A stretch of DNA of 50,908 bases, taken from the IMG/VR virus record IMGVR_UViG_3300045988_169817; one strand, written 5' to 3'. Made by a program: the position numbers and the translations under genes. Shown here piece by piece: positions 1,986 to 50,908 of the stretch (positions are counted from its first letter, which is position 1; the number at the start of each line of letters is the position of its first letter). The notes below the pieces were generated by a model, which was given only the letters and a program-made list of their open reading frames with translations, had not been told where the DNA came from and searched no databases. The DNA is from a virus.

Positions 1986-2013
1986 GCTGCATATCTAAAT
2001 ATGCAGCTATTTT
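1986..2013 (+). terminator. Second hairpin, possibly a tandem terminator
   Basis: GCTGCATAT-ctaa-ATATGCAGC followed by tattttt. Confidence 0.5.
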
Positions 2014-2752: not shown

Positions 2753-2763
2753 ATAATTGCAAT

Positions 2764-2961
2764 ATGGAAATAAATGAACAAGAGAATACCCAAGAGGTAC
2801 AGCAAGAGAATTTGCTTGATGGCTCTCAGTCAGTTCAAGCAATGCAAGAAGGAAATGAACTGCCAATTGCTGTTCAATTAGTTCAGCCTCAAGCTGCTTT
2901 AGATGAAATAGCGGAGCTTGAGAAGAAATATCGTGAAACTATAGAACGGGAGAATAAATGA
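2764..2961 (+). CDS. Hypothetical acidic and Gln-rich small protein (65 aa)
   Basis: ATG-initiated ORF that overlaps the next ORF start by 4 nt (ATGA). Confidence 0.4.
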   Translation: MEINEQENTQEVQQENLLDGSQSVQAMQEGNELPIAVQLVQPQAALDEIAELEKKYRETIERENK

Positions 2962-3434: not shown

Positions 3435-3456
3435 CAAGTGAACGAGAGAAATATAA

Positions 3457-3488
3457 GGCAGACTACAGAAAAGTAGTCTGCCTTTTTT
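3457..3488. terminator. Convergent (bidirectional) terminator hairpin
   Basis: GGCAGACTAC-agaaaa-GTAGTCTGCC followed by TTTTTT. It sits between the convergent genes ending at 3434 and 3487. Confidence 0.8.
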
Positions 3489-4209
3489 ACATTAAGCTTT
3501 CATCTTCTTCTATAACGAGAGAATAGCCGACTCCTCGTAGGGTTTCTATAGTTACTCGGCTATCCATTTTAAGCATATCTCGCAACATACACATATGGAC
3601 GTCTAAGCTACGTTTATTAAAGTAGTTATCATCAGTCCATACTTGTTGCATAAGTATTTTCCTAGGTAATATTTCGTTTTTATAGGCACATAGTAAAGCA
3701 AGAACTTGGCTTTGTTTACGATTAAGCCGTGTTTTTACACTGCCTATAGTAAGAAATTTATCTACTGTATTAAACAAGTAATCGCCTATCTCATAAGATG
3801 GCTCTATATTTCTTACTCGCACACCACATCTTTTCAAAACGGCTTTTATTCTTCTTATAAGCTCCTCAATGTTATATGGCCTTATAACGTAATCATCTGC
3901 ACCTTCATCAAATGCTTCAATAACATACTCATATCGGGCCTTGTCTGATACCATTATTACCGGTATTTTATCATTTGATTTGCGCAAAAATTTTAATGGC
4001 TTTAGCATCATAGAGGCATCTGTTGTTTTATAATGGCTTAATATGCATAAGTCATAATTCTTTTCTCTGATTTTGATTAGTATATCATTCTCAGTTGAGG
4101 TTATTACTTGAAAGCCGTTATACACCAAATAATCTACCAGGATTCTACAGTCTTCATCTTGATAGATTAAAATTCTTGGCAATGCTAATTTAGTGTTATT
4201 ACTTTTCAT
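3487..4209 (-). CDS. OmpR/PhoB-family response regulator (receiver plus winged-helix domain) with a degenerate phosphorylation site
   Basis: The receiver aligns by eye to PhoB (RILIYQDED, IPVIMVS, GADDYVIRPY, RRIKAVLKR). The C-terminus has the trans_reg_C pattern (LDVHMCMLRDML...TLRGVGYSL). Ser58 occupies the phospho-acceptor Asp position (YDLCILS), and Arg replaces the conserved Lys. Confidence 0.85.
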   Translation of the reverse strand: MKSNNTKLALPRILIYQDEDCRILVDYLVYNGFQVITSTENDILIKIREKNYDLCILSHYKTTDASMMLKPLKFLRKSNDKIPVIMVSDKARYEYVIEAFDEGADDYVIRPYNIEELIRRIKAVLKRCGVRVRNIEPSYEIGDYLFNTVDKFLTIGSVKTRLNRKQSQVLALLCAYKNEILPRKILMQQVWTDDNYFNKRSLDVHMCMLRDMLKMDSRVTIETLRGVGYSLVIEEDESLM

Positions 4210-6261: not shown

Positions 6262-6268
6262 AACTATT

Positions 6269-6400
6269 TTACCCAAATTTGTTTAACGCTCCAATCATAT
6301 CTTTGCCGAGATATTTTAAAAGTCTCAGCCTGTTTGTAGGTATTAAAGTATCTTAGTAATTTACCTACTGAGTCAAATACTCCATATTGCATTTTTCCCA
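6269..6400 (-). CDS. Possible small ORF (43 aa, MGKMQYGVFDS...)
   Basis: It fills the gap between 6403 and 6261 and starts 3 nt after the upstream stop codon. It is below the ORF-track length cutoff. Confidence 0.3.
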
Positions 6401-7602: not shown

Positions 7603-7689
7603 TATTCTCGCGCGCTCTAGAGCACGCCTATCATTCCATTATTATTCAATCATTCATGTACTTAAAGCGCGATATTGCGCGCGAGAATA
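7603..7689. promoter_or_regulatory. GC-rich inverted repeat carrying two GCGAGAAT boxes, with an internal GCTCTAGAGC palindrome
   Basis: tATTCTCGCGCGC (7603-7615) and GCGCGCGAGAATa (7677-7689) are reverse complements. They lie in the spacer between the dUTPase stop and the 7586 start. Confidence 0.55.
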
Positions 7690-10068: not shown

Positions 10069-10351
10069 ACCATTTTGAGTTATTAAGTTCAAGGTAATTA
10101 TTTAATGCGCCCATATAAGCAACTGCATCAAGCAAGTTATCTTCTTTGTGGCTATATGCCTCACGTGATAGCTTAAGAGCAATCATTGCTCTATACATTC
10201 CAGCAGTTGTTATTTGCTGGTCTTTAGGCGACATCAAGTTATAAAGAGCTGCTGCTCTTTCCATTGATGCCTGGAATGGCCCATATTGACGCTCTTTTTC
10301 CTCTGAGCGTTCATTTACAATCTTGTTTGCTTGTTCTAAGATGTTAGCCAT
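10046..10351 (-). CDS. Hypothetical small helical protein (101 aa)
   Basis: ATG-initiated ORF. The ERxxxYG motif near the N-terminus is reminiscent of small phage nucleotide-associated helical proteins. This is recollection only. Confidence 0.5.
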   Translation of the reverse strand: MANILEQANKIVNERSEEKERQYGPFQASMERAAALYNLMSPKDQQITTAGMYRAMIALKLSREAYSHKEDNLLDAVAYMGALNNYLELNNSKWYDTENRF

Positions 10352-13797: not shown

Positions 13798-13991
13798 AAT
13801 AATCTTATATCATTAGTGTTAATAAAATGCCATTCATCGTCCATGCCTTCAAGTAATAATCCAGCACACAATACCATTTGAAAATGATTATAGCAAAGTT
13901 TAATACCGTCAATTTCAAACGGGTAATTTTTCTTATCTTTCTTGCTTATAAGCCTATGGCATATAGCGCAATTACACTTAAAGTCAATCAT
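13794..13991 (-). CDS. Small zinc-finger-like protein (65 aa)
   Basis: CNCAIC...CYNH cysteine/histidine pattern. Confidence 0.45.
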   Translation of the reverse strand: MIDFKCNCAICHRLISKKDKKNYPFEIDGIKLCYNHFQMVLCAGLLLEGMDDEWHFINTNDIRLL

Positions 13992-16390
13992 AATAAGCTA
14001 TCTTTACGTTTATAGTATTTCTGTTTACCGTATAAAGGAAAGTTCTTAGTGGATGCTATAGCTTCCCATTCAGGCAATGACCTAAGAATTTCATTAACCT
14101 CTCTGGTATTATATCTTGACATTTCTGTCTTATCTTTGCCAAGGCACTCACACCATACTTCAGCAATGCAGACAAAGTCTTTTTGTACTGTACCGTTTTT
14201 AGGCAATGGGTCTTCAAGCCAACGCCTTCTGTCATACAGGTCCATTTTATCCCAGTCATCTGGAAATTTAGTATTAAGATATTCTTCAATAATACCTTTT
14301 CGCTCATCTGCTTCTGAGTGTTTATGTTGCTCAATCTTAGCAATTATATCTTCATCACCAACAAGGTATAAAGGCTCTTTTGCCAAATATAGTTGATATG
14401 CTTCAGCCCATATTTGATTTACTTCATCTTGTGTAAGGTCATCATTTACAGACTTTGTGGCATATTCTGGCCTTACGTCTATAGGCATAAATCGTCTATT
14501 TCCTGTCGGGTCACGTAAGAAATCTTTGTTGTTAGTAGTACCAAAAAATACGCATTGGCGCTTATATGTTTCTACTGTTCTACCATACGCCGGCCTGAAC
14601 ATATCTTCTCTTTTTGATATGTAGTGCTTGATTGACTCTACTTCTGCTTTCTTAAGGCCTGAAAGCTCTGCCATTTCAATCAGCCACGCCCCTTGTATCT
14701 GTTCAAATGACTCCTTGCCCTGCACAGTTGTGAATGTATCTGAGAACCATTCCATGCCGAGCTTTTTAACGAAAGTACTTTTATATGTTCCTTGTTCTCC
14801 GACAAGTATAAGCGCTGTGTCGAACTTAACACCTGGCTCGAACACCCTCGCAACAGCCGCCACCAACGTTTTCCTAATGGCGGCTCTAGTATAAGCGTTA
14901 TCTTCTGCTCCAAAATAATCAATCATTAATGTATTAACTCTCGGTATGCCATCCCACTTTTGAGCACATATATACTCTCTTATCGGATGGAACTTTTTCT
15001 TTTCAAATTCAAGCGCAAGCGCGTCGTCCACTTTTTGACTTGACACAATGCCGTAAACACACTCAATGTAATTACGAACACCAGAATAGTCAACATCACG
15101 AAGAGGCTCCACAGTATCGACTTTACGCCATGGTAACGAACGTGTAACATATCTTTTATTATCAAAAATGTTTAGCTTAAATACATCTTTTAAGAATTGG
15201 TCATGCTGAATTATTATATTCAAGTTATTGGCAGAATTATCATATTCGCCTTTTGTATTAGCGTCAAGCTCTTCTGTCCATGAAGTATCATATTCTTCAG
15301 GAACTCCTGCTTTTGCTTCTTCTGCAAACTCGAATTTAGCTTCAGCAAACTTTTCTTCAGCAATATGCTTTTTTGTTGTAGAGTCCTTAGAAGCAAATTC
15401 TTCCATTGCCTTAAAGCTCTTTTTATCTTTGTCTTCTTTTTCTTTGCCTGTATCTAAATGGCCAAATTTATGTATGCGAACTAAGTCAAATGCATTACAT
15501 AGTCTACCTCCAGCAGGGTCTGTTCCATGATGAGAATATGCAAATTTATCATCATAGACTATTAAGCCCGCAGCTGTAGAGCCATTTATATACGTATATC
15601 GCCCTTCTCCAGCTGGTGTATATACATCTGAAAGAAAAGTCTCAATGGCTTCTTGTATAGTATAAGTACGGCAGAAAACACCAATTATGCCTTTTTTATC
15701 TTCTGGGTCCTCTTGCTTTTTGATAGCTTGCATTATTACATCTGTGCTATCTGTAGCAGTTGGCCATTCGCTCGTATCATGCCAATCATCATATAGCCCA
15801 AGAATATAATCAGCTTCAAGGAAAGGTCCGTCTTGAAATTCAAAGTAGTACTCCATATCTGATGATACAGACGGCCAGAACATAAGTCTATTTACGTCAA
15901 AAGTCGACTGGTCAAACAAATCAATGTTTAGGTCTCCAGCGACTTTTCGGGCAATGGCTTGATATTCTTCTTGTGATACTTCTCTATCAAGTGGAATTAC
16001 CAATCTGTGTCGTGGCTTTTCAGGGCATGACTTATGAGTTGAGTGTATAACTGCCGCACAATCAAAAAGCATTTGGAAGTCCCACCAAAGGTTCTCATGA
16101 GAAAAGTCAATATCCAATGTAATTAACTGGCGGTAAAGTACATTTGTTTTATCACGCCTACCATTTGTAAGAAAACCTCCTACAAATCCGCCTACGTCTT
16201 TTATCTTACTTTGCTCTTCTTTTGTGGCACTCATAAACCGCTTATATGTTTCAGCGGTTACTACAGGAGTAGCTAGCTTTTGAACTAAATTGCTCCAAGT
16301 AGTTTTGGTATTTTTCCATATTTTACTTGAAACGTTTAGTCCAACTGCTATGCTCAAATTTTCATCGTATTTCAATTTATCTACTTGCAT
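13988..16390 (-). CDS. Bifunctional primase-polymerase (AEP-like N-terminus) and P-loop helicase (VirE/D5-like C-terminus)
   Basis: LITLDIDF acidic motif and HRLVIPL in the N-terminal half. A P-loop-like GEQGTYKST sits in the C-terminal half, with Tyr where the canonical Walker A has Gly. The first ATG is at 16390, and 16396 is TTG. Confidence 0.75.
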   Translation of the reverse strand: MQVDKLKYDENLSIAVGLNVSSKIWKNTKTTWSNLVQKLATPVVTAETYKRFMSATKEEQSKIKDVGGFVGGFLTNGRRDKTNVLYRQLITLDIDFSHENLWWDFQMLFDCAAVIHSTHKSCPEKPRHRLVIPLDREVSQEEYQAIARKVAGDLNIDLFDQSTFDVNRLMFWPSVSSDMEYYFEFQDGPFLEADYILGLYDDWHDTSEWPTATDSTDVIMQAIKKQEDPEDKKGIIGVFCRTYTIQEAIETFLSDVYTPAGEGRYTYINGSTAAGLIVYDDKFAYSHHGTDPAGGRLCNAFDLVRIHKFGHLDTGKEKEDKDKKSFKAMEEFASKDSTTKKHIAEEKFAEAKFEFAEEAKAGVPEEYDTSWTEELDANTKGEYDNSANNLNIIIQHDQFLKDVFKLNIFDNKRYVTRSLPWRKVDTVEPLRDVDYSGVRNYIECVYGIVSSQKVDDALALEFEKKKFHPIREYICAQKWDGIPRVNTLMIDYFGAEDNAYTRAAIRKTLVAAVARVFEPGVKFDTALILVGEQGTYKSTFVKKLGMEWFSDTFTTVQGKESFEQIQGAWLIEMAELSGLKKAEVESIKHYISKREDMFRPAYGRTVETYKRQCVFFGTTNNKDFLRDPTGNRRFMPIDVRPEYATKSVNDDLTQDEVNQIWAEAYQLYLAKEPLYLVGDEDIIAKIEQHKHSEADERKGIIEEYLNTKFPDDWDKMDLYDRRRWLEDPLPKNGTVQKDFVCIAEVWCECLGKDKTEMSRYNTREVNEILRSLPEWEAIASTKNFPLYGKQKYYKRKDSLL

Positions 16391-16399
16391 AAACAATAA

Positions 16400-18373: not shown

Positions 18374-18399
18374 TACATTTCACTTATGTATTATAATAG

Positions 18400-18480
18400 G
18401 AGTATAGGCGGGACTCGAACCCGCATAACAGGCACACAAACCAATGGCGCTCTGCGGTTTTACCATTAAACTACTATACT
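18400..18480 (-). tRNA. tRNA-like gene (81 nt) with canonical acceptor, D and T arms but a non-canonical, over-long anticodon region. Identity is undetermined.
   Basis: On the minus strand: AGTATAG/CTATACT acceptor, GTTT-AATGGTA-AAAC D arm, GCGGG-TTCGAGT-CCCGC T arm. There are 32 nt between the D and T arms instead of about 23, and no 5-bp/7-nt anticodon arm could be folded by hand. Confidence 0.6.
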
Positions 18481-18499: not shown

Positions 18500-19057
18500 T
18501 TACATCAGCACGTCGTCCCATTCATTCTCGCCTCCGAAGTCCTCTTCAGCAGTAGAACCACCGGCCAACATCTCACCGTCTTCGAGCTTCTGAAGATTGT
18601 TCAATCCAGCTGCAATGCCTTTGGATGAAACATTGAAGGCATAGAAGTTGATTGATGCACGGCCATAACAACCACTGTAGAACTCCTCTTTCTCCATGAT
18701 AGGATTGAGGTCTTTGTCCACGATGCTTGGCCTGCGCTGGCTATTGGCATTGATGAAGTACATGCCTTCGAATGCTGGGTCGTCGCCACGCTCATCGTCG
18801 CCATCACGCAGAGGCAACTTGAGGTTTGAAGGTATCTTGCCATTCTTGTCTGCGAGCTTGGCTTTACCTGCCTGTTTAGCTGCCTCGATAGCCTTGTTAA
18901 TCTTATCAAGGGTCTTTGCATCATCTTTCGGAATAAGAATGCAGATATTGTACTTAGGAGTATCGCCCTCATTCATAGCTGTGGGCTCGAACACGTTTAC
19001 ATAGCAAAATCTTACTTTGCCAGTTACAACCTTGGTTGAATTTACTTGATTACTCAT
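18500..19057 (-). CDS. DUF2815-type phage single-stranded DNA-binding protein
   Basis: N-terminal VVTGKVRFCYVNVFEP pattern, acidic C-terminal tail EEDFGGENEWDDVLM, and a position next to the DUF2800-type nuclease. Confidence 0.65.
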   Translation of the reverse strand: MSNQVNSTKVVTGKVRFCYVNVFEPTAMNEGDTPKYNICILIPKDDAKTLDKINKAIEAAKQAGKAKLADKNGKIPSNLKLPLRDGDDERGDDPAFEGMYFINANSQRRPSIVDKDLNPIMEKEEFYSGCYGRASINFYAFNVSSKGIAAGLNNLQKLEDGEMLAGGSTAEEDFGGENEWDDVLM

Positions 19058-21225: not shown

Positions 21226-21247
21226 ATTTTGGTGAATTTTATTATCT

Positions 21248-21268
21248 TATTTTCGATATGCAAATATA
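21248..21268 (-). promoter_or_regulatory. Extended promoter element TATATTTGCATATCGAAAATA
   Basis: It contains the TAnnTTTG -7 box. Near-identical 21-mers occur at 49314-49334 and 49447-49467. Confidence 0.6.
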
Positions 21269-21576: not shown

Positions 21577-21969
21577 TTACCGCTTTATGAAGTATTTTGC
21601 ACACAGCCATATAATTACTAAGGCTATGGCGGTTATCAGGTATTCACCAATATTAATTTTTATCTTTTGCCATTTAGTAAGCTGAGCTTCTACAGGGTAT
21701 GCAACTTGAATTGTATCAACTTTTTCTCGCCAGAGAGTATCATGCTTTTCTATGTATTTATACAAGTATTTATATTTACTGAGATACACGGTATCGCCTT
21801 TGTGCTCTACATATATTGAATCTCTATGATATATGCTATCAATTTTGGTCTGAGATAAGTAAGTAGTATCTCTTTTCGTTGTTTCCACTGGCACATATTG
21901 AATTGACTTACAGCTATATAATATAGTGGCTAAAAATATAAGTGTAATTATTCTCGCTAATTCTCGCAT
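21577..21969 (-). CDS. Lipoprotein with a C-terminal transmembrane helix, a unimolecular-spanin-like lysis protein
   Basis: N-terminal signal plus lipobox-like LYSC, a C-terminal TM segment ITAIALVIIWLCAKYF, and a position adjacent to the endolysin and holin. Confidence 0.5.
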   Translation of the reverse strand: MRELARIITLIFLATILYSCKSIQYVPVETTKRDTTYLSQTKIDSIYHRDSIYVEHKGDTVYLSKYKYLYKYIEKHDTLWREKVDTIQVAYPVEAQLTKWQKIKINIGEYLITAIALVIIWLCAKYFIKR

Positions 21970-22013
21970 AATCTTTGAGTTTTATTTGTTATTATTCATA
22001 TTTAATATAAAAA

Positions 22014-22048
22014 CCATTCTCGCACATAAGAAATTATTGCGAGAATGG
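22014..22048. terminator. Hairpin built from two inverted GCGAGAAT boxes. It is terminator-like on the minus strand.
   Basis: CCATTCTCGCA-13 nt-TGCGAGAATGG. On the minus strand the stem is followed by TTTTTAT. Confidence 0.55.
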
Positions 22049-22060
22049 CTTTTATGTGCT

Positions 22061-25426: not shown

Positions 25427-25454
<28 letters not shown>
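24222..25454 (-). CDS. Tail-associated SGNH/GDSL-family hydrolase, a putative polysaccharide esterase
   Basis: Block I ILCFGNSFTQDS and a C-terminal DTGH (DxxH) motif. It is the last gene of the tail-fibre block. Confidence 0.6.
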
Positions 25455-27028
<1,574 letters not shown>

Positions 27029-34523: not shown

Positions 34524-35297
34524 TTATTTCCTTTTATGCCGTTTAACACTCTTGCTTTCTGCTTCTAATTGCTGTTTTATATTATCAACAGCATTATAGA
34601 ATTGAAGTACTGTCATCTTTTTAGCATCCATGCTTGTTTTTTGAGCTATCAAAAGACAAGTACTTTCAAATTGCTTATCATATTTTATCTCAACAGACTC
34701 ACTTCCTATATATGATTTTGGAGAATGCATATTAAGCATTATCATATCTATAGTTTCTATCTGTTCAGAGTTATCTGTGTCATTTATCATAGAGTCCAAC
34801 ACAAGAAGTGTTCTTTGCTTTAACTTATCGTATGCATCTTTTTCCTTTGGATTTACAAAATCTCCTGGAAAGTACATTTCAAGTTCGGTGGTTACTTTTT
34901 TTTTAAGCCAAGTCAAAAAGTCTATAATCTTTGAATGCTTTATTTCTTTAAGCCTGGCCAATATATTTTTAAGTCCATCGTCTGACAAATCATTAACTTC
35001 TTCGCCATCTATGCTATGGATAAGAGCTGCAAAAGCTAAGTACCTCGGTGAAATTTCATTGTTCACCATATACATATTTTGCCTCATGTTTTGCAGTTCT
35101 TGCAAAGCTTTTTTGGCATTATTGCTTTTAATGAATTTAGCAACACGGGTTATATGGGCATCAATATCATCTGCATCTGAGCCAATTCCAGAGTCTATAA
35201 GCAAATACTTATTGTACTTCTGAAAATTTACAATAGGCATTTCATCTATGCTGTCATATACCCGTACGACTTTTTTATTTACTATCAGGTTTTTCAT
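34524..35297 (-). CDS. Hypothetical protein upstream of the tape measure, a possible tail assembly chaperone
   Basis: Position only. Confidence 0.35.
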   Translation of the reverse strand: MKNLIVNKKVVRVYDSIDEMPIVNFQKYNKYLLIDSGIGSDADDIDAHITRVAKFIKSNNAKKALQELQNMRQNMYMVNNEISPRYLAFAALIHSIDGEEVNDLSDDGLKNILARLKEIKHSKIIDFLTWLKKKVTTELEMYFPGDFVNPKEKDAYDKLKQRTLLVLDSMINDTDNSEQIETIDMIMLNMHSPKSYIGSESVEIKYDKQFESTCLLIAQKTSMDAKKMTVLQFYNAVDNIKQQLEAESKSVKRHKRK

Positions 35298-35566
35298 ATT
35301 AAAATTCGCGTTATAGGGGTTGATATAATAGGAATAAGTATAATACTCATCTCATTAAAGAAAATAGCGAGAATGATAGCGAGAATAAGCGACGTCCAAA
35401 AGCTTAAGCAAAAGTCACAATCGAATAATTGAGAAATAAGCTTAGGAGCTCTGGTAATTATCTCATCGCGCACACCGAGTTTTCCAATTAGCAAAATAGC
35501 AAATGCTGCTGCTAAGGCTATATATATTAAAGCCGAAAGCATTGTTATAAAATATACCGTTGACAT
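35294..35566 (-). CDS. Small integral membrane protein (DUF1360-like CDFCLSFW motif)
   Basis: Three hydrophobic helices. The motif assignment is from memory. Confidence 0.45.
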   Translation of the reverse strand: MSTVYFITMLSALIYIALAAAFAILLIGKLGVRDEIITRAPKLISQLFDCDFCLSFWTSLILAIILAIFFNEMSIILIPIISTPITRILI

Positions 35567-42623: not shown

Positions 42624-43274
42624 TTAAGCTCCAGCAGAAGCAGCATTAACCCAATCTGTAAGAGGATTGAAGTCCAATGTTTCACGCTTAACGATGTAGA
42701 AGTTATCGCTCCAGTTAGGATAGAATGACCATTCAATGGTATTGCTGTCCGGCTCTTCAAAACCGCCAAGCTTCTTATCGCCAACAAAGAACTTACCAAT
42801 AGGAATTGGGAAGTATGCTGTAGGCTTATCCTGGTCATCTACCAAACAGCCAATGTTGCCGTTTTCATCAATCAGCCAAACGCCAATCTCTTCGCACATA
42901 TACTGTTTCAGCTGTGCAATTGTCTTCTGACTTTCCTGATAGATAGTGGCAGAGAACGTTGTCGGCTCACGGCCAATTGTAATCTCAATACCTCCAAGTG
43001 TCTGGTTACCACCACCGAATGTACGAGCTGCACCAGGCTCAGAAGTAGGTCCTTGAATATACGGAGAAACTGTCATTTTAGAACCATCAGCTGCAGAAAA
43101 CAAGGTAGAAAACGATGCTTTCTTAGTCGGGTCAACGACAGAGTTCTTCGTTCCGGCTGTCTTATAGATGCGCTGGAATGCAACTTTTTGTACTTGCCCC
43201 ATGCTCTCCTTGCAGTTTGCAATTTCAAGGTCGGCGATATGTGCGCCTGCAGGGCATCCACAGTTTAATCCCAT
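42624..43274 (-). CDS. Hypothetical abundant virion protein candidate, possibly a tail tube (216 aa)
   Basis: It has its own TATATTTG promoter, GC-enriched codon usage like the capsid gene, and a beta-rich sequence. Confidence 0.35.
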   Translation of the reverse strand: MGLNCGCPAGAHIADLEIANCKESMGQVQKVAFQRIYKTAGTKNSVVDPTKKASFSTLFSAADGSKMTVSPYIQGPTSEPGAARTFGGGNQTLGGIEITIGREPTTFSATIYQESQKTIAQLKQYMCEEIGVWLIDENGNIGCLVDDQDKPTAYFPIPIGKFFVGDKKLGGFEEPDSNTIEWSFYPNWSDNFYIVKRETLDFNPLTDWVNAASAGA

Positions 43275-43371
43275 AATTTATTTATGTTTTAATGTTAATA
43301 TTACCGAGCAGTTACCCTTAACTTGCATCGAATTACCTGTATTTTTGCTTTGAATTGGCTTCTCCACAGGG

Positions 43372-43379
43372 CAAATATA
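43372..43379 (-). promoter_or_regulatory. Bacteroides-type -7 box TATATTTG
   Basis: Reverse complement of caaatata, about 100 nt upstream of the 43274 start. Confidence 0.45.
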
Positions 43380-43438
43380 CTAAATTTCTTTATAAGCTGT
43401 ACCGCTTTTAACATTTTTTATAGAGGTATTTTTATTTC

Positions 43439-43530
43439 ATATTCTCGCATTATGTCCATTCAAGGCTTATGATTTAATCATTTATATATAATTAGAAGCC
43501 TAGAAATTGCGAGAATAATGCGAGAATATG
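43439..43530. promoter_or_regulatory. 13-bp inverted repeat carrying GCGAGAAT boxes (three boxes in total)
   Basis: atattctcgcatt (43439-43451) and aatgcgagaatat (43518-43530) are reverse complements. An extra box lies at 43509-43516, 11 bp from the next. Confidence 0.6.
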
Positions 43531-43539
43531 AATTTTAAC

Positions 43540-46263
43540 TCAATTTCTCAATGATATCTTCTTCCTTCCAGCTTTTCTAAGCCTCATTTCTACTACTCCA
43601 GTTAATGCATCTGGTGCATCATCATGAGCAGCCCTTCGCTTATTATCTTTACGATAAGTTGTAATAGCATTATAGAATTCACGCCATTTTTTATCCCAAT
43701 TTTCTGGAAACGCTACATCTGAGTTAACAAGAGCTGAATTTGAAAAAATACGAGCAGCTTTATTTTTTGTCTGTGTAAAAGTATTTATGGCTGTTTTGAA
43801 ATTATGCAAAGTAGCTCTTGTAATACGCTTTACATTTCTAGCAAACTGCCTACCACCATTATTGGACTCTATCAGACATTCTGTTATACTATTTTCTGTG
43901 AGCATTTTAGCCAACATTACTTCAGTTTTTTCCATGGGCAGTTGTGTGTATAGCACATCAATTATATATAGCATTTCTGGAGTATTTATAAAGCAAATTG
44001 CACATAAATAATCAGAGCCAGTATCAGCTGTATCAACGTAACACCATCTTTGATTAGCTTTAGAGCCTGATGGCAATTCTATATTTTGATATGTCCTAAA
44101 CTCGTGATACATAAGGCCCTCAGTAGGAATTGGATTTTGCATATATTGGGTCTCAAATACTACCGGGTTAATCTCTCGTAGTTTATATAGCTCCTCAAGA
44201 TTGTGCTTCATTGGCCAAAGAGCATGTTCTTCTCCTGTCTCAGGGTCTGTTTGTATAACTGGAAGTGATAAAACAGTCCATGTATCTGGCTCTATCTCTT
44301 GCAAATAGCCACAGAGGTCATGCTCATGTAATCTTTGCATTATAATAATGATAGGCGTTCTACGCGAGTTAACACGGTTACGTATTGTATTTTCGAAGCG
44401 TTGGTTTATGCGCTCTCGTATAAGGTCGGATGCTGCATCATCGGCTTTCAGGGGGTCATCGATTACAATTGCGCCTTGAAATATATTGGTTTTAGCATCT
44501 ATCATTTTAAGCATTTCATTCGTGTGGTCATCGAAAACAAATATATCATTGCCTCCATCCATTTTATCTATTTCTTCATCTACCGCTCCAGCACCAAAGC
44601 CTGTGACCTGACCTTGTGTTGACACTGCATAGAGTTCTCCTCCTGCTTTAGTTTTCCATCTCTTAGCCGAACCTTTCTCGGATGCAAGAGCTGAATTAGG
44701 AAAGAGTGTTTTATATAATTCTTCACTCATTATATTGCGTACAGTATCTGAATTGTCATTCACAAGTATATCTGAATACGACAAATGCAGAAATCTACTC
44801 CGCGGGTTCAAGGCGAAGGCCCATGAGATAAACGACTTAATAACTAATTCTGTATTGTGTGATACGAGCCCATTGGCTATAAAATTTTTATCGCCAGATA
44901 CTTCAATATGAACTAATTCATGCTTTCCTACTTCTTCTATACTAACAATTTCATCAGGATAGAAATCTTCAGCCCAATATCTCGTAAGGTTATCAGGAAA
45001 AATTTCCACTAATTCTCTAAATGTATCTTCTGACATATTCCTATTTGGCCCAACTGATTTATACCCTAAATCAAAGTGTATCATTTTGTAAAGGCCTTCA
45101 TTCTTTATTATAGAATACGGGTATGTGCATGTACGTTCTATTTTAGAAGGCTGTAAAATGTATTCTTTTGCTTTATCTGCTTTTCCATAAAAATCCAAAT
45201 GCGGATATAATTTTTGAGAATACCTTCTTGATATTGCAACATTCCATATACCAGCTTTTTCATTTTCATAAAATCCTAAAGTTGATGGGATTTTCATAGT
45301 AGATAACAGATATTGGATATCCTCAGCAAGTCCTTTGTTTGCTAGGCCTATAGACAACTGGCCATTCTTTTTTATAGTACCATCTGTCGCTATCACTATT
45401 CCTAAAAACACATATTTTTGTCGCATAGAAGTACTAAATATTCCTAATGGGATTCTTTTAGTATAAGAGTCATTTCCAACTAATCTATGCTTTATTAAAA
45501 TGTTATCTATTACGCCTTTAGTTCCGCCTAATATGGTATATTGACAATCTGCGGTACAAGAATAATGCTTGACCTCACCTCCGAGTTCATTAACAGCCTT
45601 TATAACAGCATTTACCGCTAATTTATCTATGTTAGTAAATCCTAATTTACCAGATTTTGTACAACATCCGTCAAACAGCACCATTGATATTAGTATAACC
45701 TCCGCGTCTGATAATGTTTCGGCGCCGTCCAACTCTTTTTTTAGTGCAAATATCCTATCTCCAATTTTAAGCCTATTAGATTTTACATACCCGAACGGTG
45801 TCCTCCAAGGATGGTCAATACTGCATACAACTGACCGACCTGACCTCATAGTAATTTCATAGCAGTCTTTATATGCCGGCTCAGTAGCAATAACGCTATT
45901 AACAACTGCTCTACCATCTTTGAATGATAGCACTTTATCTCCTGGCAGTATATCAGCTATTTTTTTTCGCTCACCTGTAGCAAGCGTAATAAGGGTATCT
46001 TTACTAACGCATTTCCCGTATCTGGGAGCGATATTGATAATCAATCTGGTAATTTTACCATCTACAACATCTTGTAACACTTCGAACATTTTCTTATGGT
46101 GCTCTGCTACTATGAATGAGCGTTTATATTGGCATTTAAACATTAGTTTAGTATACTTTTCAAATGACGTAAGAGCCTCAAGGCGTAACATTTCTACAGG
46201 ATTTACAGTTCCGGGCTTTGTGGCGTCTAATGCTGTTTCTTGCATTTCTTTAAGTGACTTCAT
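43540..46263 (-). CDS. terL: Terminase large subunit interrupted by an intein (907 aa precursor, 521 aa after splicing)
   Basis: The Walker A motif APRYGK|TELV is reconstituted by removing residues 85-470. The C-terminal nuclease half has a typical length. Confidence 0.8.
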   Translation of the reverse strand: MKSLKEMQETALDATKPGTVNPVEMLRLEALTSFEKYTKLMFKCQYKRSFIVAEHHKKMFEVLQDVVDGKITRLIINIAPRYGKCVSKDTLITLATGERKKIADILPGDKVLSFKDGRAVVNSVIATEPAYKDCYEITMRSGRSVVCSIDHPWRTPFGYVKSNRLKIGDRIFALKKELDGAETLSDAEVILISMVLFDGCCTKSGKLGFTNIDKLAVNAVIKAVNELGGEVKHYSCTADCQYTILGGTKGVIDNILIKHRLVGNDSYTKRIPLGIFSTSMRQKYVFLGIVIATDGTIKKNGQLSIGLANKGLAEDIQYLLSTMKIPSTLGFYENEKAGIWNVAISRRYSQKLYPHLDFYGKADKAKEYILQPSKIERTCTYPYSIIKNEGLYKMIHFDLGYKSVGPNRNMSEDTFRELVEIFPDNLTRYWAEDFYPDEIVSIEEVGKHELVHIEVSGDKNFIANGLVSHNTELVIKSFISWAFALNPRSRFLHLSYSDILVNDNSDTVRNIMSEELYKTLFPNSALASEKGSAKRWKTKAGGELYAVSTQGQVTGFGAGAVDEEIDKMDGGNDIFVFDDHTNEMLKMIDAKTNIFQGAIVIDDPLKADDAASDLIRERINQRFENTIRNRVNSRRTPIIIIMQRLHEHDLCGYLQEIEPDTWTVLSLPVIQTDPETGEEHALWPMKHNLEELYKLREINPVVFETQYMQNPIPTEGLMYHEFRTYQNIELPSGSKANQRWCYVDTADTGSDYLCAICFINTPEMLYIIDVLYTQLPMEKTEVMLAKMLTENSITECLIESNNGGRQFARNVKRITRATLHNFKTAINTFTQTKNKAARIFSNSALVNSDVAFPENWDKKWREFYNAITTYRKDNKRRAAHDDAPDALTGVVEMRLRKAGRKKISLRN
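44854..46011 (-). mobile_element. Intein (386 aa) with a LAGLIDADG homing-endonuclease domain
   Basis: N-terminal CVSKDTLI, block B CSIDHPW, two LAGLIDADG-like motifs (LISMVLFDGC and FLGIVIATDGT), and a C-terminal VSHN followed by Thr. Confidence 0.8.
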
Positions 46264-46273: not shown

Positions 46274-47062
46274 TTACTTTATTAAGTTTTCACGTATAAT
46301 CAGATATGCTTCACGACTTACAGGCACATTAGGAATAATGCCTGTTTGGAGTTGTTGCTGCTCAGGTAGATTAAGCTGCATTTGACCTTTTCCAAACACA
46401 CGGTCCCAAAGCTTCTCAATTGTTTCTATATTGCCAAGTTTTGTATCTTCTTGCAAGCGCTTTATAACTGTTTTGATAACGATTGGTATCTTTTTATTGT
46501 TATACAGAGCCGCAAGTTGTGCCTCATTGCACGTTAACAAACAAGCCAATAAATTAGCCGTGTCCTGCTTTGTAAGTTGGACACTTAAATTGATATTAAG
46601 GCTAGTAAGAAGCTTTGTTATTTCAGGCCTTGATGCTCCTTGTAACTGAAGTGCTGAGCGTATAGCTGATGAATATGAACCTCTGCCCGAGTCATGGCGC
46701 TCTGCTAACTCAGTTGCTTTAAGTGGCTCTACAGTCTGAGCCTCAAGTGCCTCAATAGCCTCAACTCGTTTTTGCTGCTCTGCAATACGTTTGGCTTGAA
46801 ACTCAGTTTGGCCATCTGGTATTTCTTCCAAGCCAAGTTCTTCTGCTAACGATCGGCGTTTTTCTTGTTTAGCTTGAAGGTTTTTAAGCTTCTGCTTTTC
46901 AAGATACTTAATACGAGCCAATTCCTTTGCATCGTATTTTGATTTAATGCGCGTGGCCTCTTGTTCTACGAGTTTGGATGTGTCTGGATTAGACATTCCA
47001 GGAACTATTGGCCTGTTTGGCAATATATCTGCTAATTTCTGTGCTATTTTATCTGTTTTCAT
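46274..47062 (-). CDS. Putative terminase small subunit (262 aa)
   Basis: Position immediately upstream of terL only. Confidence 0.35.
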   Translation of the reverse strand: MKTDKIAQKLADILPNRPIVPGMSNPDTSKLVEQEATRIKSKYDAKELARIKYLEKQKLKNLQAKQEKRRSLAEELGLEEIPDGQTEFQAKRIAEQQKRVEAIEALEAQTVEPLKATELAERHDSGRGSYSSAIRSALQLQGASRPEITKLLTSLNINLSVQLTKQDTANLLACLLTCNEAQLAALYNNKKIPIVIKTVIKRLQEDTKLGNIETIEKLWDRVFGKGQMQLNLPEQQQLQTGIIPNVPVSREAYLIIRENLIK

Positions 47063-47864
47063 ATTGGCTATTATATTTTTGTTGTTTATTTGATATGGTT
47101 TTACTTTTTTCTTCTAATGCCATATCTTTCTTTATTTGGTTTTGTAATCGCCTATACTCTGTTGCTTTTCTAAGGTCTGGCTCTATAGTTATTATATCAT
47201 CTGCATTATTAAATCTCCATACAGAACCATAGGCTATTCTCCGTTGGCCATTGCAACACATGTATATGGCGCTTGGGTTGACTTTTGTCGGTGTTGAATT
47301 TGCGTATTCTCTTATAGAATCCCATCTTTTATAAAATTTATAAGTATTTTCTGCTATCTCAGTATACTGATATACGGCTCTATGTGGATAACTACGTATA
47401 GTATCTGTTCCTGATTTACGTATTGTATCTGGTATTCCCCATTTTGCTGCATATCCTGGTATGACGGCTTTTTCTGCTGCACATTTATTTAAGCTATTTA
47501 TTATGTTGTGGCCGTAGGGAGCATAAGCTATATATTCATCTATCAATTCATACATTCTTAGGTATACGCCCATCAAGTCTAGGTTCATAGGAATTTCTTC
47601 TGTGGACACCGTTATATATTTGCTTTCAGTTATGGCTTTTGCCAAGTCAGGATTGTTTTTACTTGGCCAAGCTGCATTATGAAATGCATCATATATAAGC
47701 CTCTCTATTTTGTTTTTAACAGTAAAAGTTCTTCTTTCTCCTGTCCAGCCTATGTATACTTTATTATCATACTCAAACTCAAGTATGAAAAATGCACTTG
47801 TAGACTGTAAATTGGCGTTTTCTTGTAAATCTACCAAATACTTGTATTTACCTATGCGTATCAT
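47049..47864 (-). CDS. GIY-YIG homing-endonuclease-like protein with C-terminal DNA-binding repeats
   Basis: FILEFEYDNKVYIGWT, EEIP...YGHNI resembles I-TevI (EEIP...NGYNI). The C-terminal pattern AIYMCCNGQRRIAYGSVWRF is NUMOD-like. 47891 is TTG, and the first ATG is at 47864. Confidence 0.55.
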   Translation of the reverse strand: MIRIGKYKYLVDLQENANLQSTSAFFILEFEYDNKVYIGWTGERRTFTVKNKIERLIYDAFHNAAWPSKNNPDLAKAITESKYITVSTEEIPMNLDLMGVYLRMYELIDEYIAYAPYGHNIINSLNKCAAEKAVIPGYAAKWGIPDTIRKSGTDTIRSYPHRAVYQYTEIAENTYKFYKRWDSIREYANSTPTKVNPSAIYMCCNGQRRIAYGSVWRFNNADDIITIEPDLRKATEYRRLQNQIKKDMALEEKSKTISNKQQKYNSQYENR

Positions 47865-47888
47865 AAATATAGTTTTTTTATTACTTTG

Positions 47889-47896
47889 CAAATATA
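47889..47896 (-). promoter_or_regulatory. Bacteroides-type -7 box TATATTTG
   Basis: It lies 25 nt upstream of the ATG at 47864, and a GCGAGAAT box (47920-47927) sits about 25 nt further upstream. Confidence 0.55.
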
Positions 47897-48383
47897 CTAA
47901 TAAAAATTGATAGGCGAAAATTCTCGCAAAATAAAAATTACACAGAAATGAGAAATTAACATTTTTTTATACTAGTGAATTATTAACCTTTTAATATGAT
48001 ATTTCACAGGTATTTAGGCATATATCTTAGTTAGTGAATAGAAAATGAGGCTTTGGTTTCTTGTGTTTCTACCTCACAAAATAAAGCTAATTGAAAATCA
48101 ATATTTTATCAAATTTAATTAGTGAATGGAAATTGAGTGGCGCAGAAACAATCATCTCTAACTCTTCTACGAAGTCTTATACTGTGATATGTGAATAGAT
48201 AAGCCTATCTATATCACAATTCACTATCTCAAATCTATTTTATCTCTTTTATATATTTATTGTTTATGTTGTTTATCGATATCTAATTTATTGAAAATCA
48301 ATCATTTATTGAGAAACTTCACTCTGATTTCGCATGTTTATTTTGTTTCTTTGAAAATTATTTCTGAGCATCTATTCTTTATT

Positions 48384-48780
48384 GCGAGAATGGGATTTTG
48401 TCAATTCCTTATTAAGTCTAGGGGCCTAGATTGATATTTGCGAGAATGTATGCGAGAATGAGAATTTATGAGCCTCTGGGCCTTGCTCATACTCATATAT
48501 GATTTGAATCCCAATTTGCGAGAATGATTTGAACCCCCAATTTGCGAGAATGGTTTGAACCCCAATTTGCGAGAATGATTTGAAGCCAAAAAATTTTTCT
48601 GCCTATGGACATGGCTCTATATACTATATATGATTTGAATCCCAATTTGCGAGAATGAGAATTTATGAGCCTCTGGGCCTTGCTCATACTTATATATGAT
48701 TTGAATCCCAATTTGCGAGAATGATTTGAAGCCAAAAAATTTTTCTGCCTATGGACATGGCTCTATATACTATATATAAG
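48384..48780. repeat. Array of nine same-orientation TGCGAGAAT boxes embedded in two larger duplications
   Basis: Boxes at 48384, 48440, 48452, 48518, 48544, 48569, 48649 and 48715. The block at 48452-48531 recurs at 48649-48728 with one mismatch. The block at 48569-48632 recurs at 48715-48778. Confidence 0.9.
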
Positions 48781-48881
48781 GGGGCACCCAGGCACTGCGG
48801 CAGGGGCCTAATTTCCACACAGGCTAAACAAATTAAATATAAAAATCTATTTCGTTAAAAAGCATTAAGCCTGACAGCCTC

Positions 48882-48970
48882 ATTCGTTAATTATAGCTTG
48901 ATTCATTAATTATGGTTTAATTCATTAATTATGGTTTAATTTGTTAATTATTGGTTTGATTCGTTAAGAA
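48882..48970. repeat. Tandem repeat of about 19 nt (about 4.5 copies, attcattaattatggttta)
   Basis: Units at 48882, 48901, 48920, 48939 and 48959. They are flanked by an imperfect direct repeat tcgttaaNaagcattaagNct. Confidence 0.85.
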
Positions 48971-49313
48971 GCATTAAGGCTATGAGCCTGTTAACAACTC
49001 TCTGGTAAAACAACCTTCAAGTTCCAAGCCATAACCAGGCTCACAGGCTCTCCTCTAACAAGGTTTAACGAAGCTTTGACATTTCCTAACCGAAAATATT
49101 TTCAGGTTCCGATTGTTTTATTAGCTGACAGTTATAAAATCATTATTTTCAGCTTATTAACGAAACAACCAGGAAATCTAATACAATTTAACTTGTAAGA
49201 TTTTTATAGGTTATTTATTTTACAGGTTATATAGCCAACAATTTTTAATATTCATATCCAGGTTTCTTAACACTTTTTTAATGCATAAATTTTATAGCCG
49301 GTAAAATTATTAT

Positions 49314-49334
49314 TATATTAGCATATCGAAAATA
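49314..49334 (+). promoter_or_regulatory. Promoter-like 21-mer TATATTAGCATATCGAAAATA (one mismatch in the -7 box)
   Basis: Near-identical to 49447-49467 and to the reverse complement of 21248-21268. Confidence 0.4.
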
Positions 49335-49374
49335 AGCCGGATATATATATAATAATTTAATGGTTATTAACCAA

Positions 49375-49414
49375 ATATCCAATACTTATTAACGAATATC
49401 CAATACTTATTAAC
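49375..49414. repeat. Direct repeat atatccaatacttattaac, two copies with 21-bp period
   Basis: 49375-49393 and 49396-49414 are identical. Confidence 0.85.
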
Positions 49415-49446
49415 CAAATAAATTTTTCCGGTTAAAATAAAATTGG

Positions 49447-49467
49447 TATATTTGTATATCGAAAATA
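49447..49467 (+). promoter_or_regulatory. Promoter TATATTTGTATATCGAAAATA for the plus-strand gene block
   Basis: TAnnTTTG box 61 nt upstream of the ATG at 49508. Confidence 0.6.
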
Positions 49468-49507
49468 AAACGAGAATAATATGGAATAATTAAAAAATAT
49501 AGACAGT

Positions 49508-49864
49508 ATGAAAATTAGCAGAAACTATCGTTTCGTCCTGACAGTTCTGGACAACGAGAAAATTAACGCGGGAGAAATCCGTATTGACAGCAGTGCTGTA
49601 ACCGGCGAGAGAATGTTTGTCAGCGAATGCCATTATTATGCCGAAAAAAATATTTTGGAATGCCTGAAAGAGGCCGACAAAAGAAATGACCTGAGCGGTT
49701 ATTACGGCCATACGTACTGTATTTATAAGGAAAACAAGTCGAAAAAGGAAATAACCGAACGGGAGGAGGACGGCAAGAAGATTGTCGAAACTAGAGAAAT
49801 ACCGGGAGAGGCAATGTTGCTCGAAATAATAACCGTGGACGAAAATGGCGTAAATATCCGCTGA
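49508..49864 (+). CDS. Hypothetical protein (118 aa)
   Basis: ATG-initiated ORF, the first gene of the plus-strand block. Confidence 0.55.
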   Translation: MKISRNYRFVLTVLDNEKINAGEIRIDSSAVTGERMFVSECHYYAEKNILECLKEADKRNDLSGYYGHTYCIYKENKSKKEITEREEDGKKIVETREIPGEAMLLEIITVDENGVNIR

Positions 49865-49874
49865 TGCGGATATT
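49851..49874 (+). other. 10-bp hairpin spanning the stop codon of the 49508 ORF
   Basis: AAATATCCGC-tgat-GCGGATATTT. Confidence 0.6.
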
Positions 49875-49876
49875 TA

Positions 49877-49923
49877 GCCCAGGCCGGGAAGGCTGTACAG
49901 GAGTTCGACTCTCCTGCTGGGCA
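49877..49923 (+). ncRNA. tRNA-like acceptor/T-arm minihelix. It could be a tRNA fragment, an att-like remnant or a tRNA mimic.
   Basis: GCCCAG...CTGGGC acceptor-like stem (6 bp) enclosing AGGAG-TTCGACT-CTCCT, which fits the T-arm consensus. There is no D or anticodon arm. Confidence 0.4.
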
Positions 49924-49964
49924 CAATTGGCAATATTGCCGAGAGGATTAAAATAAACTATAAT

Positions 49965-50168
49965 ATGGATAAATTTAATTTAGTAGTACGTGCTGCAAGA
50001 GAATTGGCGCGTGCCGTACAAGAGAATTATTATGGCCTGTCAGACCTAGATAATATTAATTACAGCGAGGTATGTGAATGGTGTAACTTTCCTGATTTAC
50101 AAGACGGAGGTATATATGAACAGGCTATTGATGCGGCTGCAAAAATTATTATAGAGGTTATTAAATAA
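49965..50168 (+). CDS. Hypothetical small protein (67 aa)
   Basis: ATG-initiated ORF. Confidence 0.45.
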   Translation: MDKFNLVVRAARELARAVQENYYGLSDLDNINYSEVCEWCNFPDLQDGGIYEQAIDAAAKIIIEVIK

Positions 50169-50178
50169 CAGGAGAATT

Positions 50179-50460
50179 ATGGCACAATTACAGCAATTTT
50201 TGTTCGGATTATCGTTCGGACAGGCCAGGAGAATACGCGGATATATGCTGAAACGGCGTGTATTGCGGCTCAATGAAAGGCCTAGAGCAGGCCATAAATG
50301 GCTATATGCCGAACGAGGATATATTAGAAGGACTGTCAGAAGTATTGGCAGGAGAGTCCTGCACGGGAGAATGGCCGAGAGATATGCAGCTAGTAATATG
50401 TATGGAGGCATGGCAGTAAAAAGTGTTGGACTAAAACAAGAGGACAGCAATGGAAAATAA
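50179..50460 (+). CDS. Hypothetical Arg-rich basic protein (93 aa)
   Basis: ATG preceded by aggag, one of the few SD-like sites in the window. Confidence 0.45.
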   Translation: MAQLQQFLFGLSFGQARRIRGYMLKRRVLRLNERPRAGHKWLYAERGYIRRTVRSIGRRVLHGRMAERYAASNMYGGMAVKSVGLKQEDSNGK

Positions 50461-50698
50461 CAAATCGCAGTTCAAGAGGACAGGAGTTTTGCATGGCGGA
50501 ACCGAGTGCGTTGAGGTACAAATAAGTCACTCAGGCGATGCGGCAAGGTATGTGAGCACAATCATGTTCACAGTAAGGGACCCAGAGGTCACGAGAGGCC
50601 GTTGGCAAGAGAAACGCTACAGCAAGAGAAACGGCCATGCGTATATTGTGAAGTACGGCAAGAGGCTATATTTGCACAAATTTCTAAGAATATACTAA
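50450..50698 (+). CDS. Hypothetical protein (82 aa)
   Basis: ATG-initiated ORF overlapping the previous one by 11 nt. Confidence 0.45.
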   Translation: MENNKSQFKRTGVLHGGTECVEVQISHSGDAARYVSTIMFTVRDPEVTRGRWQEKRYSKRNGHAYIVKYGKRLYLHKFLRIY

Positions 50699-50699
50699 C

Positions 50700-50908
50700 A
50701 TGGCAGCAAGAGACTATAAATTTGAGTACATGCTACTCAACCGGCTTCAATGCGATTGCAATTACTATCTTGGCCACGGCGGCCGAAATGCTCAGCATTG
50801 TCTTTGGGCCCATGGCGAGCAGAAACAAATCGATAAAATGCGAGAGCTTTACGATTTGTTGCCGGTTAAACCTGAGTGGCTTACAAGAGAACAAATTGAT
50901 GGATACGC
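50700..50908 (+). CDS. 5' part of the wrap-around ORF (it continues at 100-121). 76-aa protein with the motif YMLLNRLQCDCNYYLGHGGRN...LW...PEWLTREQIDGY.
   Basis: The ATG lies 2 nt after the previous stop codon, and the reading frame is continuous through the terminal overlap. Confidence 0.6.
   Translation, partial: MAARDYKFEYMLLNRLQCDCNYYLGHGGRNAQHCLWAHGEQKQIDKMRELYDLLPVKPEWLTREQIDGY
50810..50908. repeat. Second copy of the 99-bp terminal direct repeat
   Basis: Identical to 1-99 by eye. Confidence 0.95.

Follow-up and report, generated by a model that had tools for sequence, protein, structure and literature searches.

An eight-nucleotide box held at gene boundaries of human-gut Bacteroidales phages, a candidate operator set for a phage-encoded OmpR-type regulator

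The virus sequence IMGVR_UViG_3300045988_169817 was analysed over its full length of 50,908 nucleotides (the window), and was found to carry many copies of an 8-mer, GCGAGAAT (ATTCTCGC on the opposite strand), which is referred to here as the box. A family of abundant human-gut Bacteroidales phages holds it at the same gene boundaries, almost certainly as a control signal. It is real, conserved and functional in some way, and its sites, their conservation, their syntax and their co-occurrence with a regulator gene were established in the current study. Our preferred reading, a tentative one to which we give somewhat less than even confidence, is that the boxes may be the dispersed operators of a regulator that the phage itself encodes, most likely an atypical OmpR-type protein, overlaid on terminator-like cassettes. 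Dispersed phage operators and regulatory stem-loop cassettes are both known kinds of element, and the box is no new category.

On the two strands of the window, GCGAGAAT/ATTCTCGC occurred in 21 exact copies. A preliminary description of this DNA had counted 18, overlooking the copies at 18524, 35367 and 35379; its estimate of about one chance copy was borne out by dinucleotide shuffles (mean 1.31 copies, maximum 5) and by an order-3 Markov model (1.32 copies expected). Against either expectation the excess was strong (21 vs 1.3), the box being the top-enriched 8-mer of the window at a density of 0.41 per kb, and the 13 copies outside the array described below had a Poisson probability of 1.6e-9. 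Sixteen copies are intergenic, as had been stated, in a genome of which intergenic DNA makes up 9.5%. The earlier division of the copies into these 16 and two others was right in that two copies fall on the opening codons of the spanin-like gene, but 35367/35379 and 18524 also lie in genes. The motif is exact over its 8-mer core and weakly defined beyond it (T at −1, a purine at +9), one-mismatch variants being at background frequency within the window, and a literature search for it returned primer matches only.

Related DNA was collected from IMG/VR through three protein anchors, one metagenome scan and several exact-protein look-ups. The preliminary description had proposed a search for the same box in related phage genomes, and 20 of the 21 copies proved to lie at positions that are kept in more than 100 related phage contigs. 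Box positions were shared even by relatives in which the anchor protein was 33–53% identical and TerL 61% identical, and the box was retained where flanking and interior DNA had been exchanged. The remaining copy, a single one inside the 3' end of the SSB-like gene (18524..18531, minus strand), is a chance hit outside the system, because it was unconserved in 80 related loci and about 1.3 chance copies are expected. The box was at background in phage BF503P4 (3 copies) and in Parabacteroides phage PDS1 (1 copy), and its frequency was 0.012–0.024 per kb in 1.26 Mb of bacterial DNA that included Bacteroidota loci (none from the true host).

Three junctions in a leftward gene string of 44 kb (47.9 kb to 3.5 kb) share the same order of elements. 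In the direction of transcription, the stop codon is followed after 13–18 nt by one or two copies of ATTCTCGC, then by a spacer and GCGAGAAT, and the arrangement of the inverted pairs is invariably 5'-ATTCTCGC...GCGAGAAT-3'; all three pairs were as described earlier. In the post-TerL cassette (43436..43532, minus strand), boxes at 43509 and 43520 (plus strand, 11 bp apart) are paired with an inverted box at 43441 (minus strand), and the arms are 18 nt long and perfectly complementary, with 61 nt between them (fold z −8.1). This pair was present in nearly all related loci, in which at least five unrelated interiors were found, each measuring 79–80 nt from box to box and each forming a long hairpin with the boxes as its basal stem. 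A host-type −7 element, TATATTTG (43365..43372, minus strand), lies 61 nt downstream of this cassette and is likely to be the promoter of gene 42624–43274 and the genes beyond. The lysis-module cassette (22007..22055, minus strand), with inverted boxes at 22039 (plus strand) and 22016 (minus strand), has 18-nt arms and a stem that follows an A-run and precedes a U-run (z −6.8 for both strands), and was present in most related loci. The post-dUTPase cassette (7603..7689, minus strand) has inverted boxes at 7681 (plus strand) and 7604 (minus strand) and perfectly complementary arms of 13 nt, with 61 nt between them (z −4.0); in relatives this pair is likewise 77 nt apart. The complementarity of the outer flanks of the window hairpins was not kept in relatives, whose flanks occur in varying combinations that change exactly at the boxes.

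When a GC-containing hairpin directly followed by a U-tract is taken as the mark of an intrinsic terminator, the lysis cassette fits on both strands and is similar to a bidirectional intrinsic terminator. A U-tract is missing from the post-TerL and post-dUTPase hairpins, in which the two halves of the stem stand 61 nt apart. The post-TerL cassette fits in all its parts the layout of the PeSL cassettes of T4-like phages (a stem-loop with a host-type promoter, lying between stop and start codon, shared between sites and mosaic), and no consensus promoter was found at the lysis and post-dUTPase cassettes. The nearest cultured relatives are Bacteroides fragilis phages of the BF503P4 group (portal identity 76%). 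BF503P4 (OP172672.1) has hairpins after TerL and dUTPase (8811–8873 and 49320–49400) with a shared stem of its own, CCTGGAAGAGC/GCTCTTCCAGG, and its post-TerL hairpin is followed by a −7 promoter in the same layout as in the window. Since these cassettes exist without the box or the regulator, the hairpins are an older feature of the phage family. The post-TerL hairpin looks like a family-wide feature with a stem sequence that changes by lineage; in the clade of the window, the stem sequence of the three cassettes is the box. A purely structural explanation is insufficient, because the same word is also used where a hairpin is impossible. In a further locus without the box (L409, 3334–3598), a GC-rich sequence at the same kind of junction has complementary CCCTGGGCC and GGCCAGGG words and may form a comparable hairpin. 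Two other inverted repeats of the window contain no box and are probably terminators: a perfect 22-nt repeat with a 103-nt spacer (21364–21385/21489–21510) in the 350-nt gap between lysis and replication genes, and a perfect 12-nt hairpin between convergent transcription units (3455–3484).

Four pairs of boxes in the window are arranged in tandem, with spacings of 10, 11, 12 and 12 bp. The three reported earlier (12, 11 and 10 bp) were recovered, and a fourth was added at 35367/35379. Across the clade, tandem spacings were 10 bp (n=69), 11 bp (n=18) and 12 bp (n=91), while the majority of box copies are single, inverted or wider apart than direct repeats of about 10–11 bp. The added pair (35367..35386, plus strand, 12 bp) lies antisense in the gene of a DUF1360-like small membrane protein (35294–35566), and was found in 76–78 of 79 related loci; an added constraint on its boxes is unproven, the test being uninformative because the whole gene is well conserved. 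The 10-bp pair (21950..21967, minus strand) spans the opening codons of the lipoprotein/spanin-like gene, whose ATG is at 21969. Where relatives have another gene downstream, the pair is retained at the same spacing, 48–49 nt past the hairpin, and falls in the 5' untranslated region. This pair is therefore no by-product of coding.

One box faces the packaging/structural operon (47920..47927, minus strand), 23 nt upstream of a host-type Bacteroides −7 element, TATATTTG (47889..47896, minus strand), which matches the consensus TAnnTTTG (PMC7366714). Host-type promoters with this consensus were located at +180, +738, +49447, −47889, −43372 and −21261 (strand given by the sign). Among 30 distinct upstream sequences of the packaging operon, the conserved islands were the box with its T-run, the −7 element, and ATGTTAA about 40 nt further up. 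The distance from the box to TAnnTTTG was constant at 22–23 nt in all relatives. With the −7 element taken to lie at about −11 to −4, the box would extend over about −42 to −35, the normal place of the −33 TTTG element. A box adjoining the upstream promoter element was found at this one promoter; at a second (43372) the box is 61 nt upstream. The box was rejected as a promoter element by itself, no −7 or −10-like element being found at a constant distance downstream in either orientation, and near-boxes (CGAGAAT 7-mers at 21275 and 49470) close to two early promoters were attributed to chance (background frequency, differing positions).

The largest group of boxes lies in a 1.6-kb intergenic hub separating divergent transcription units, 0.45–0.8 kb upstream of the late promoter. 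The preliminary description had placed nine copies at 48384–48722; their common orientation was correct (all on the plus strand), but eight are exact (starts 48384, 48440, 48452, 48518, 48544, 48569, 48649 and 48715). The array boxes lie within nested repeats (a 25-nt period repeated 3.4 times and duplications of 82 and 86 nt), and their copies are not independent events because they are part of these larger repeat units. In the relatives examined first, the array has one to eight copies, with place and orientation unchanged. On neither strand is a consensus promoter directed into the array, which argues that the function of the box lies at least partly at the DNA level; the presence of boxes in both orientations, their presence inside genes, and the lysis pair that outlasts gene exchange argue for the same. 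A second motif, AATGATTNRAA, was discarded, as it had no significance outside the array.

Other elements of the hub were also noted. The cumulative GC-skew minimum falls in it, and a simple terminator scan found none in 47000–50000. At the outer edge of the array, a GC-rich element (48780–48815) with an 8-nt period (CCNNGGCA three times, after TATATACTATATATA) was kept in all relatives with substitutions by lineage; a packaging site or a transcript start are possibilities for it, and a cos site there was rejected, the contig ends of relatives varying within repeats and resembling assembly breaks. Further repeats comprise a 19-nt unit present 4.5 times (ATTCGTTAATTATGGTTTA, 48882–48967) and, at 49364–49420, 48027–48137 and 48183–48225, a 21-nt unit present 2.6 times, GTGAATAG-type repeats and a large palindrome. 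These families, the 19-nt unit among them, look like better candidates for origin iterons than the box. The promoters at 21246–21268 (minus strand), heading the replication module, and 49447–49468 (plus strand), heading the rightward early block, have a common extended sequence, TATATTTG(C/T)ATATCGAAAATAA, with a weaker third copy at 49309–49335 (plus strand), and look like a separate early-promoter class.

The protein most likely to bind the box is predicted to be the product of the gene at 3487..4209 (minus strand), an atypical regulator of the OmpR/PhoB type with a receiver domain and a winged helix. Both domains exceeded the curated Pfam cut-offs (PF00486, 2.2e-17; PF00072, 1.4e-08), and the protein aligned over its full length to PrrA, DrrD, BasR, RegX3, KdpE and PhoP from the PDB. 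In the window, Ser (ILS) takes the place of the phospho-acceptor Asp at the end of beta-3, one subfamily has Gly there, and the Lys of beta-5 is Arg; because of these replacements, the regulator is presumably phosphorylation-independent. No kinase domain that could indicate a partner histidine kinase was found in Pfam and PHROGs scans of the window proteins, nor among the Pfam families computed beforehand for the genes called in the loci of three relatives. In Pfam and PHROGs scans covering most of the unassigned window proteins, the regulator was the sole one with a recognisable sequence-specific DNA-binding domain. Every box-bearing relative with a locus extending as far as this gene was found to encode it (51–99% identity), and the recognition-helix segment NKRSLDV..C.LR was maintained across subfamilies. 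BF503P4 is without the regulator and in PDS1 none is annotated; in both, as noted, the box is at background. Two relatives without boxes (L407 and L409) are short contigs, and neither IMG/VR nor metagenomes yielded longer ones from their lineages. Cellular homologues were at best 31–35% identical, none of the 80 best matches being a close copy of the phage type, and literature searches gave no report of a response regulator encoded by Bacteroides phages.

These results suggest that the proposal of an operator set for a dedicated phage DNA-binding protein, made in the preliminary description, is the best fit. The co-occurrence with the regulator, the tandem spacing and the box in the −33 region speak for it, while the binding itself is a prediction from circumstantial evidence. 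Both the tandem boxes 10–12 bp apart and the box at −33 of the late promoter agree with the way in which this protein family binds DNA. Binding of the regulator to the box and the direction of any regulation are inferred from the sequence. A sequence-specific DNA-binding protein that the clade encodes, most likely the product of 3487–4209, would recognise T-GCGAGAAT-R, and the predicted target of the regulator, TGCGAGAATG, would be present at about 20 sites. The regulator would be produced from the replication/nucleotide operon, and one winged-helix domain would occupy each box, tandem boxes 10–12 bp apart thereby receiving head-to-tail pairs. At the packaging/structural operon, protein on the box in the −33 region may substitute for recognition by the host sigma factor or block it. 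At the three operon junctions, protein on the inverted boxes may modify read-through or insulation between modules, the lysis junction having an extra tandem pair where the following gene begins. The array of eight copies would be a high-occupancy cluster, which could be a reservoir, could form a loop with the promoter box of opposite orientation, or could control the neighbouring origin-like region. A more elaborate version, in which a kinase-less OmpR-type protein on duplex stems decides whether the palindromes are extruded or folded, titration by the array during replication times read-through of the 44-kb unit, and the cassettes are fixed exchange points, so that all would act as one switch, is quite improbable.

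Several observations weigh against an operator set for this regulator. The co-occurrence of box and regulator holds at the level of the whole clade only, and at least five other clade-specific genes of unassigned function, 47049–47864 beside the array among them, are distributed alike. The box is unchanged while the DNA-binding domain of the regulator falls to 50–56% identity, for which a constant host partner is the simpler explanation. Each inverted pair makes up the base of the stem in a very stable hairpin (z −4 to −8), and since non-homologous interiors stay self-complementary and of the same length, selection appears to act on a single-strand structure, of which a duplex-binding protein has no need. 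The hairpin cassettes are also independent of the regulator, as BF503P4 has them and lacks it. Finally, the array spacings of 25, 26, 56, 66 and 80 bp are out of helical phase, and about 12 of the 30 distinct promoter sequences of relatives have transitions at box positions 1–3.

A possible but rather doubtful explanation is that the cassettes work in RNA or single-stranded DNA, as terminators, attenuators or mRNA-stabilising hairpins of the PeSL type, and that the box is their common stem sequence. On this reading, the box would be kept either by an RNA-binding factor that reads AUUCUCGC or GCGAGAAU to switch between pairings, or by recombination homogenising the cassettes. All three inverted pairs are stably folded at their short distance past a stop codon, the lysis hairpin has the A and U runs of an intrinsic terminator, the unrelated post-TerL interiors preserve both hairpin and length, and BF503P4 has hairpins in the same places with a different shared stem, the one after TerL again preceding a −7 promoter. 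Mosaic junctions of relatives fall at the cassettes, as has been described for PeSLs (PMC2839356, PMC4122927), and surplus copies of one arm would permit alternative pairings, including the box on the spanin start codon. However, no partner lies near the eight array copies, the promoter copy or the tandem pair within the tail-module gene, and those of the array and promoter are outside the reach of any consensus promoter. A hairpin alone does not need an exact 8-mer across such deep divergence, the outer complementarity was not kept in relatives, and a U-tract was found at one of the three hairpins only. Moreover, the box would appear in mRNA in both orientations, and one RNA-binding specificity can therefore not serve all sites. 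It is less likely still that the boxes are sites for a host factor (a response regulator or a global regulator) by which the phage senses the state of the host, the phage regulator being unrelated, a mimic or a competitor. An invariant box in relatives whose own proteins diverge down to 33–60% identity is what a constant host partner predicts, and CtrA site clusters in the large intergenic region of a siphovirus are a precedent (PMC9437464). Against this, BF503P4 (on Bacteroides fragilis) and PDS1 (on Parabacteroides) have related structural genes and a background frequency of the box. The low density in bacterial DNA compared with the window points the same way, although it is weak evidence, as none of that DNA came from the real host.

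Two further explanations were considered. The boxes could be replication iterons, as also proposed in the preliminary description, or packaging sites, bound by the VapE/D5-type primase-helicase (13988–16396) or by the small-terminase-like protein (46274–47062), which we regard as very unlikely. The octamers of ori and crr of phage P4 occur in both orientations and at more than one locus, and the R sites of lambda cosB offer a comparison for packaging recognition. The box, an octamer in both orientations at multiple loci, is P4-like in this respect, and its array is found in the hub, where the cumulative GC skew has its minimum, with the packaging genes directly downstream and the conserved GC-rich element adjoining. 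Iterons would be confined to the origin, beside an AT-rich unwinding element or the initiator gene, but only the array fits; 12 conserved copies are found at five other loci, some inside two genes, and are placed precisely relative to stops, starts and a promoter. The 19-nt repeat in the hub is more iteron-like, the contig ends of relatives vary within repeats and give no single defined terminus, and the primase-helicase of BF503P4 is 70% identical, yet that phage has no box above background. A scarcely probable alternative binder is the product of the first gene of the packaging operon (47049..47864, minus strand), which combines a GIY-YIG-like fold at the N terminus with a conserved helix-turn-helix-like module at the C terminus; the boxes would serve auto-repression in the style of I-TevI, or would be the ends of palindromic cassettes mobilised by the protein. 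In its AlphaFold2 model (mean pLDDT 80), the best fold match was the I-TevI catalytic domain, with a target TM-score of 0.79 but a weak E-value of 0.028. The helix-turn-helix-like segment is its best-conserved part, and the gene is clade-specific; its start is 56 nt downstream from a box, and the array is 0.5 kb away. On the other hand, no conserved Arg was seen at the expected catalytic position (alignment read by eye), and the cassettes stay syntenic rather than moving. Weaker objections are that L408, which keeps the box, has the most divergent helix-turn-helix segment, and that L407, with no promoter box in its short stretch, has a near-identical one. Chi-like sites, methylation sites, repeats of invertible promoters and attC-like recombination as in integrons were set aside by reasoning and without dedicated tests, because of the intergenic syntax, the lack of a recombinase among the scanned proteins, and segment lengths of 23–71 bp.

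The preferred operator set can be compared with several known systems. The pho boxes bound by OmpR/PhoB-type proteins are direct repeats about one helical turn apart, with a GC-containing core next to an A/T-rich stretch, and may lie on the upstream promoter element. The box resembles them in its direct repeats of about one turn, in its site on the upstream promoter element, and in a GC-containing core beside an A/T-rich stretch; it differs in its spacing of 10–12 bp and in its many single or inverted sites, and here the canonical Asp is missing and no partner kinase is encoded. The operators of phage P1 C1 are asymmetric, scattered genome-wide, single or paired in inverted ('bivalent') form, and control several operons; they are 17 bp long and degenerate, and serve lysogenic immunity. 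The box is likewise asymmetric and dispersed, single or in inverted pairs at several operons. Unlike P1, the present phage shows no integrase or repressor module, and no prophage form of it was found while looking for a cellular source of the regulator.

A parallel in site distribution is given by phages with CtrA boxes (Brevundimonas phage vB_BsubS-Delta and others), in which sites are also mostly intergenic, with additional ones in promoter regions elsewhere. In these phages, the protein is the CtrA of the host, its motif is TTAA-N7-TTAA, and it has been shown experimentally to bind its phage site clusters and to regulate phage genes (PMC9437464). The present system would instead involve the phage's own orphan regulator without a phospho-acceptor and an asymmetric 8-mer, with some sites in hairpin stems, and is known from sequence alone. 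The PeSL cassettes of T4-like phages are alike in being intergenic stem-loops with a stop codon on one side and a host-type promoter on the other, in having a conserved sequence common to the cassettes of one genome, and in having mosaic junctions at the cassettes. Each is about 100 bp long and conserved over its whole length, and a genome has about 50 of them, which flank orphan genes in hyperplastic regions (PMC2839356, PMC4122927). By contrast, only the 8-mer is common here, there are three cassettes at junctions of core modules, and the 8-mer is also used free of hairpins in the array, in tandem pairs and at a promoter.

Bases 1–99 of the window recur exactly as 50810–50908, indicating a complete, circularly assembled genome of about 50.8 kb, and the gene content is that of a siphovirus of Bacteroidales. 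The leftward string begins with the packaging and structural genes (GIY-YIG-like protein, small-terminase-like protein, TerL, portal, capsid and tape measure), continues with amidase, spanin-like lipoprotein, exonuclease, SSB-like protein and PolA, and ends with the VapE-type primase-helicase, SNF2 helicase, dUTPase, a thymidylate-synthase-like enzyme and the OmpR-type regulator. The rightward block is short, consists of small genes and spans the circle junction. TerL (43540–46263, minus strand) has 907 residues, about 370 more than the 525–535 of relatives without an intein, and one relative TerL of 909 residues has Intein_splicing and LAGLIDADG_3 domains; the TerL of the window therefore probably contains an intein with a homing endonuclease.

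A tRNA-like gene (18399–18480, minus strand) scored 45.7 bits against the Rfam tRNA model and was given no definite identity by ARAGORN (four-base 'ccat' anticodon call); this tRNA (18400–18480) was the single match at or above the gathering score in an Rfam scan of the whole window. Of the proteins encoded at 9442–10092 and 25427–27028 (both minus strand), one consists of GNATV(K/E)A(C/W/R) repeats of about eight residues and the other has a run of about 20 serines, which accounts for the enriched 8-mer GTAGTAGT. The thymidylate-synthase-family protein (5581–6276, minus strand) is 60% identical to the product of a BF503P4 gene annotated as deoxycytidylate 5-hydroxymethyltransferase, and a methyltransferase-like gene was assigned by eye at 8618–9439; from these two genes, the bases of the phage DNA may be modified.

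A second family of words (GRGAGAAT, CAAGAGAA, CGAGAGAA and CAGGAGAA) was over-represented in the rightward block of small genes, on its sense strand (49508–50908 and 1–3517 of the window, plus strand), and in loci L001–L038 and L400–L403. It has 10–15 copies per 20 kb in relatives; most copies lie within open reading frames, some directly before starts (2948 and 50171 in the window), and the family may represent a purine-rich coding or ribosome-binding-like word. A search for the tandem-box pattern across IMG/VR outside the clade gave coding repeats or chance matches. Five copies of GCGAGAAT, including overlapping tandems, lie within about 150 nt (4098–4251) of the unrelated IMG/VR contig 3300005573_000937 (L052, 61% GC), and may be a coincidence or a convergent operator.

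The phage lineage is common in human-gut metagenomes, one cluster of the regulator at 90% identity comprising 2,863 member sequences. The box-framed cassettes mark points of module exchange among relatives, which matters for the reading of mosaicism in the gut virome. A signal of 8–10 bp, a list of candidate binders and four site architectures together offer an experimental route to the timing of late genes, lysis and the insulation of modules. If a kinase-less OmpR-type protein does bind the box, the system would be a phage-borne counterpart of the host CtrA circuits that operate in phages of Alphaproteobacteria.

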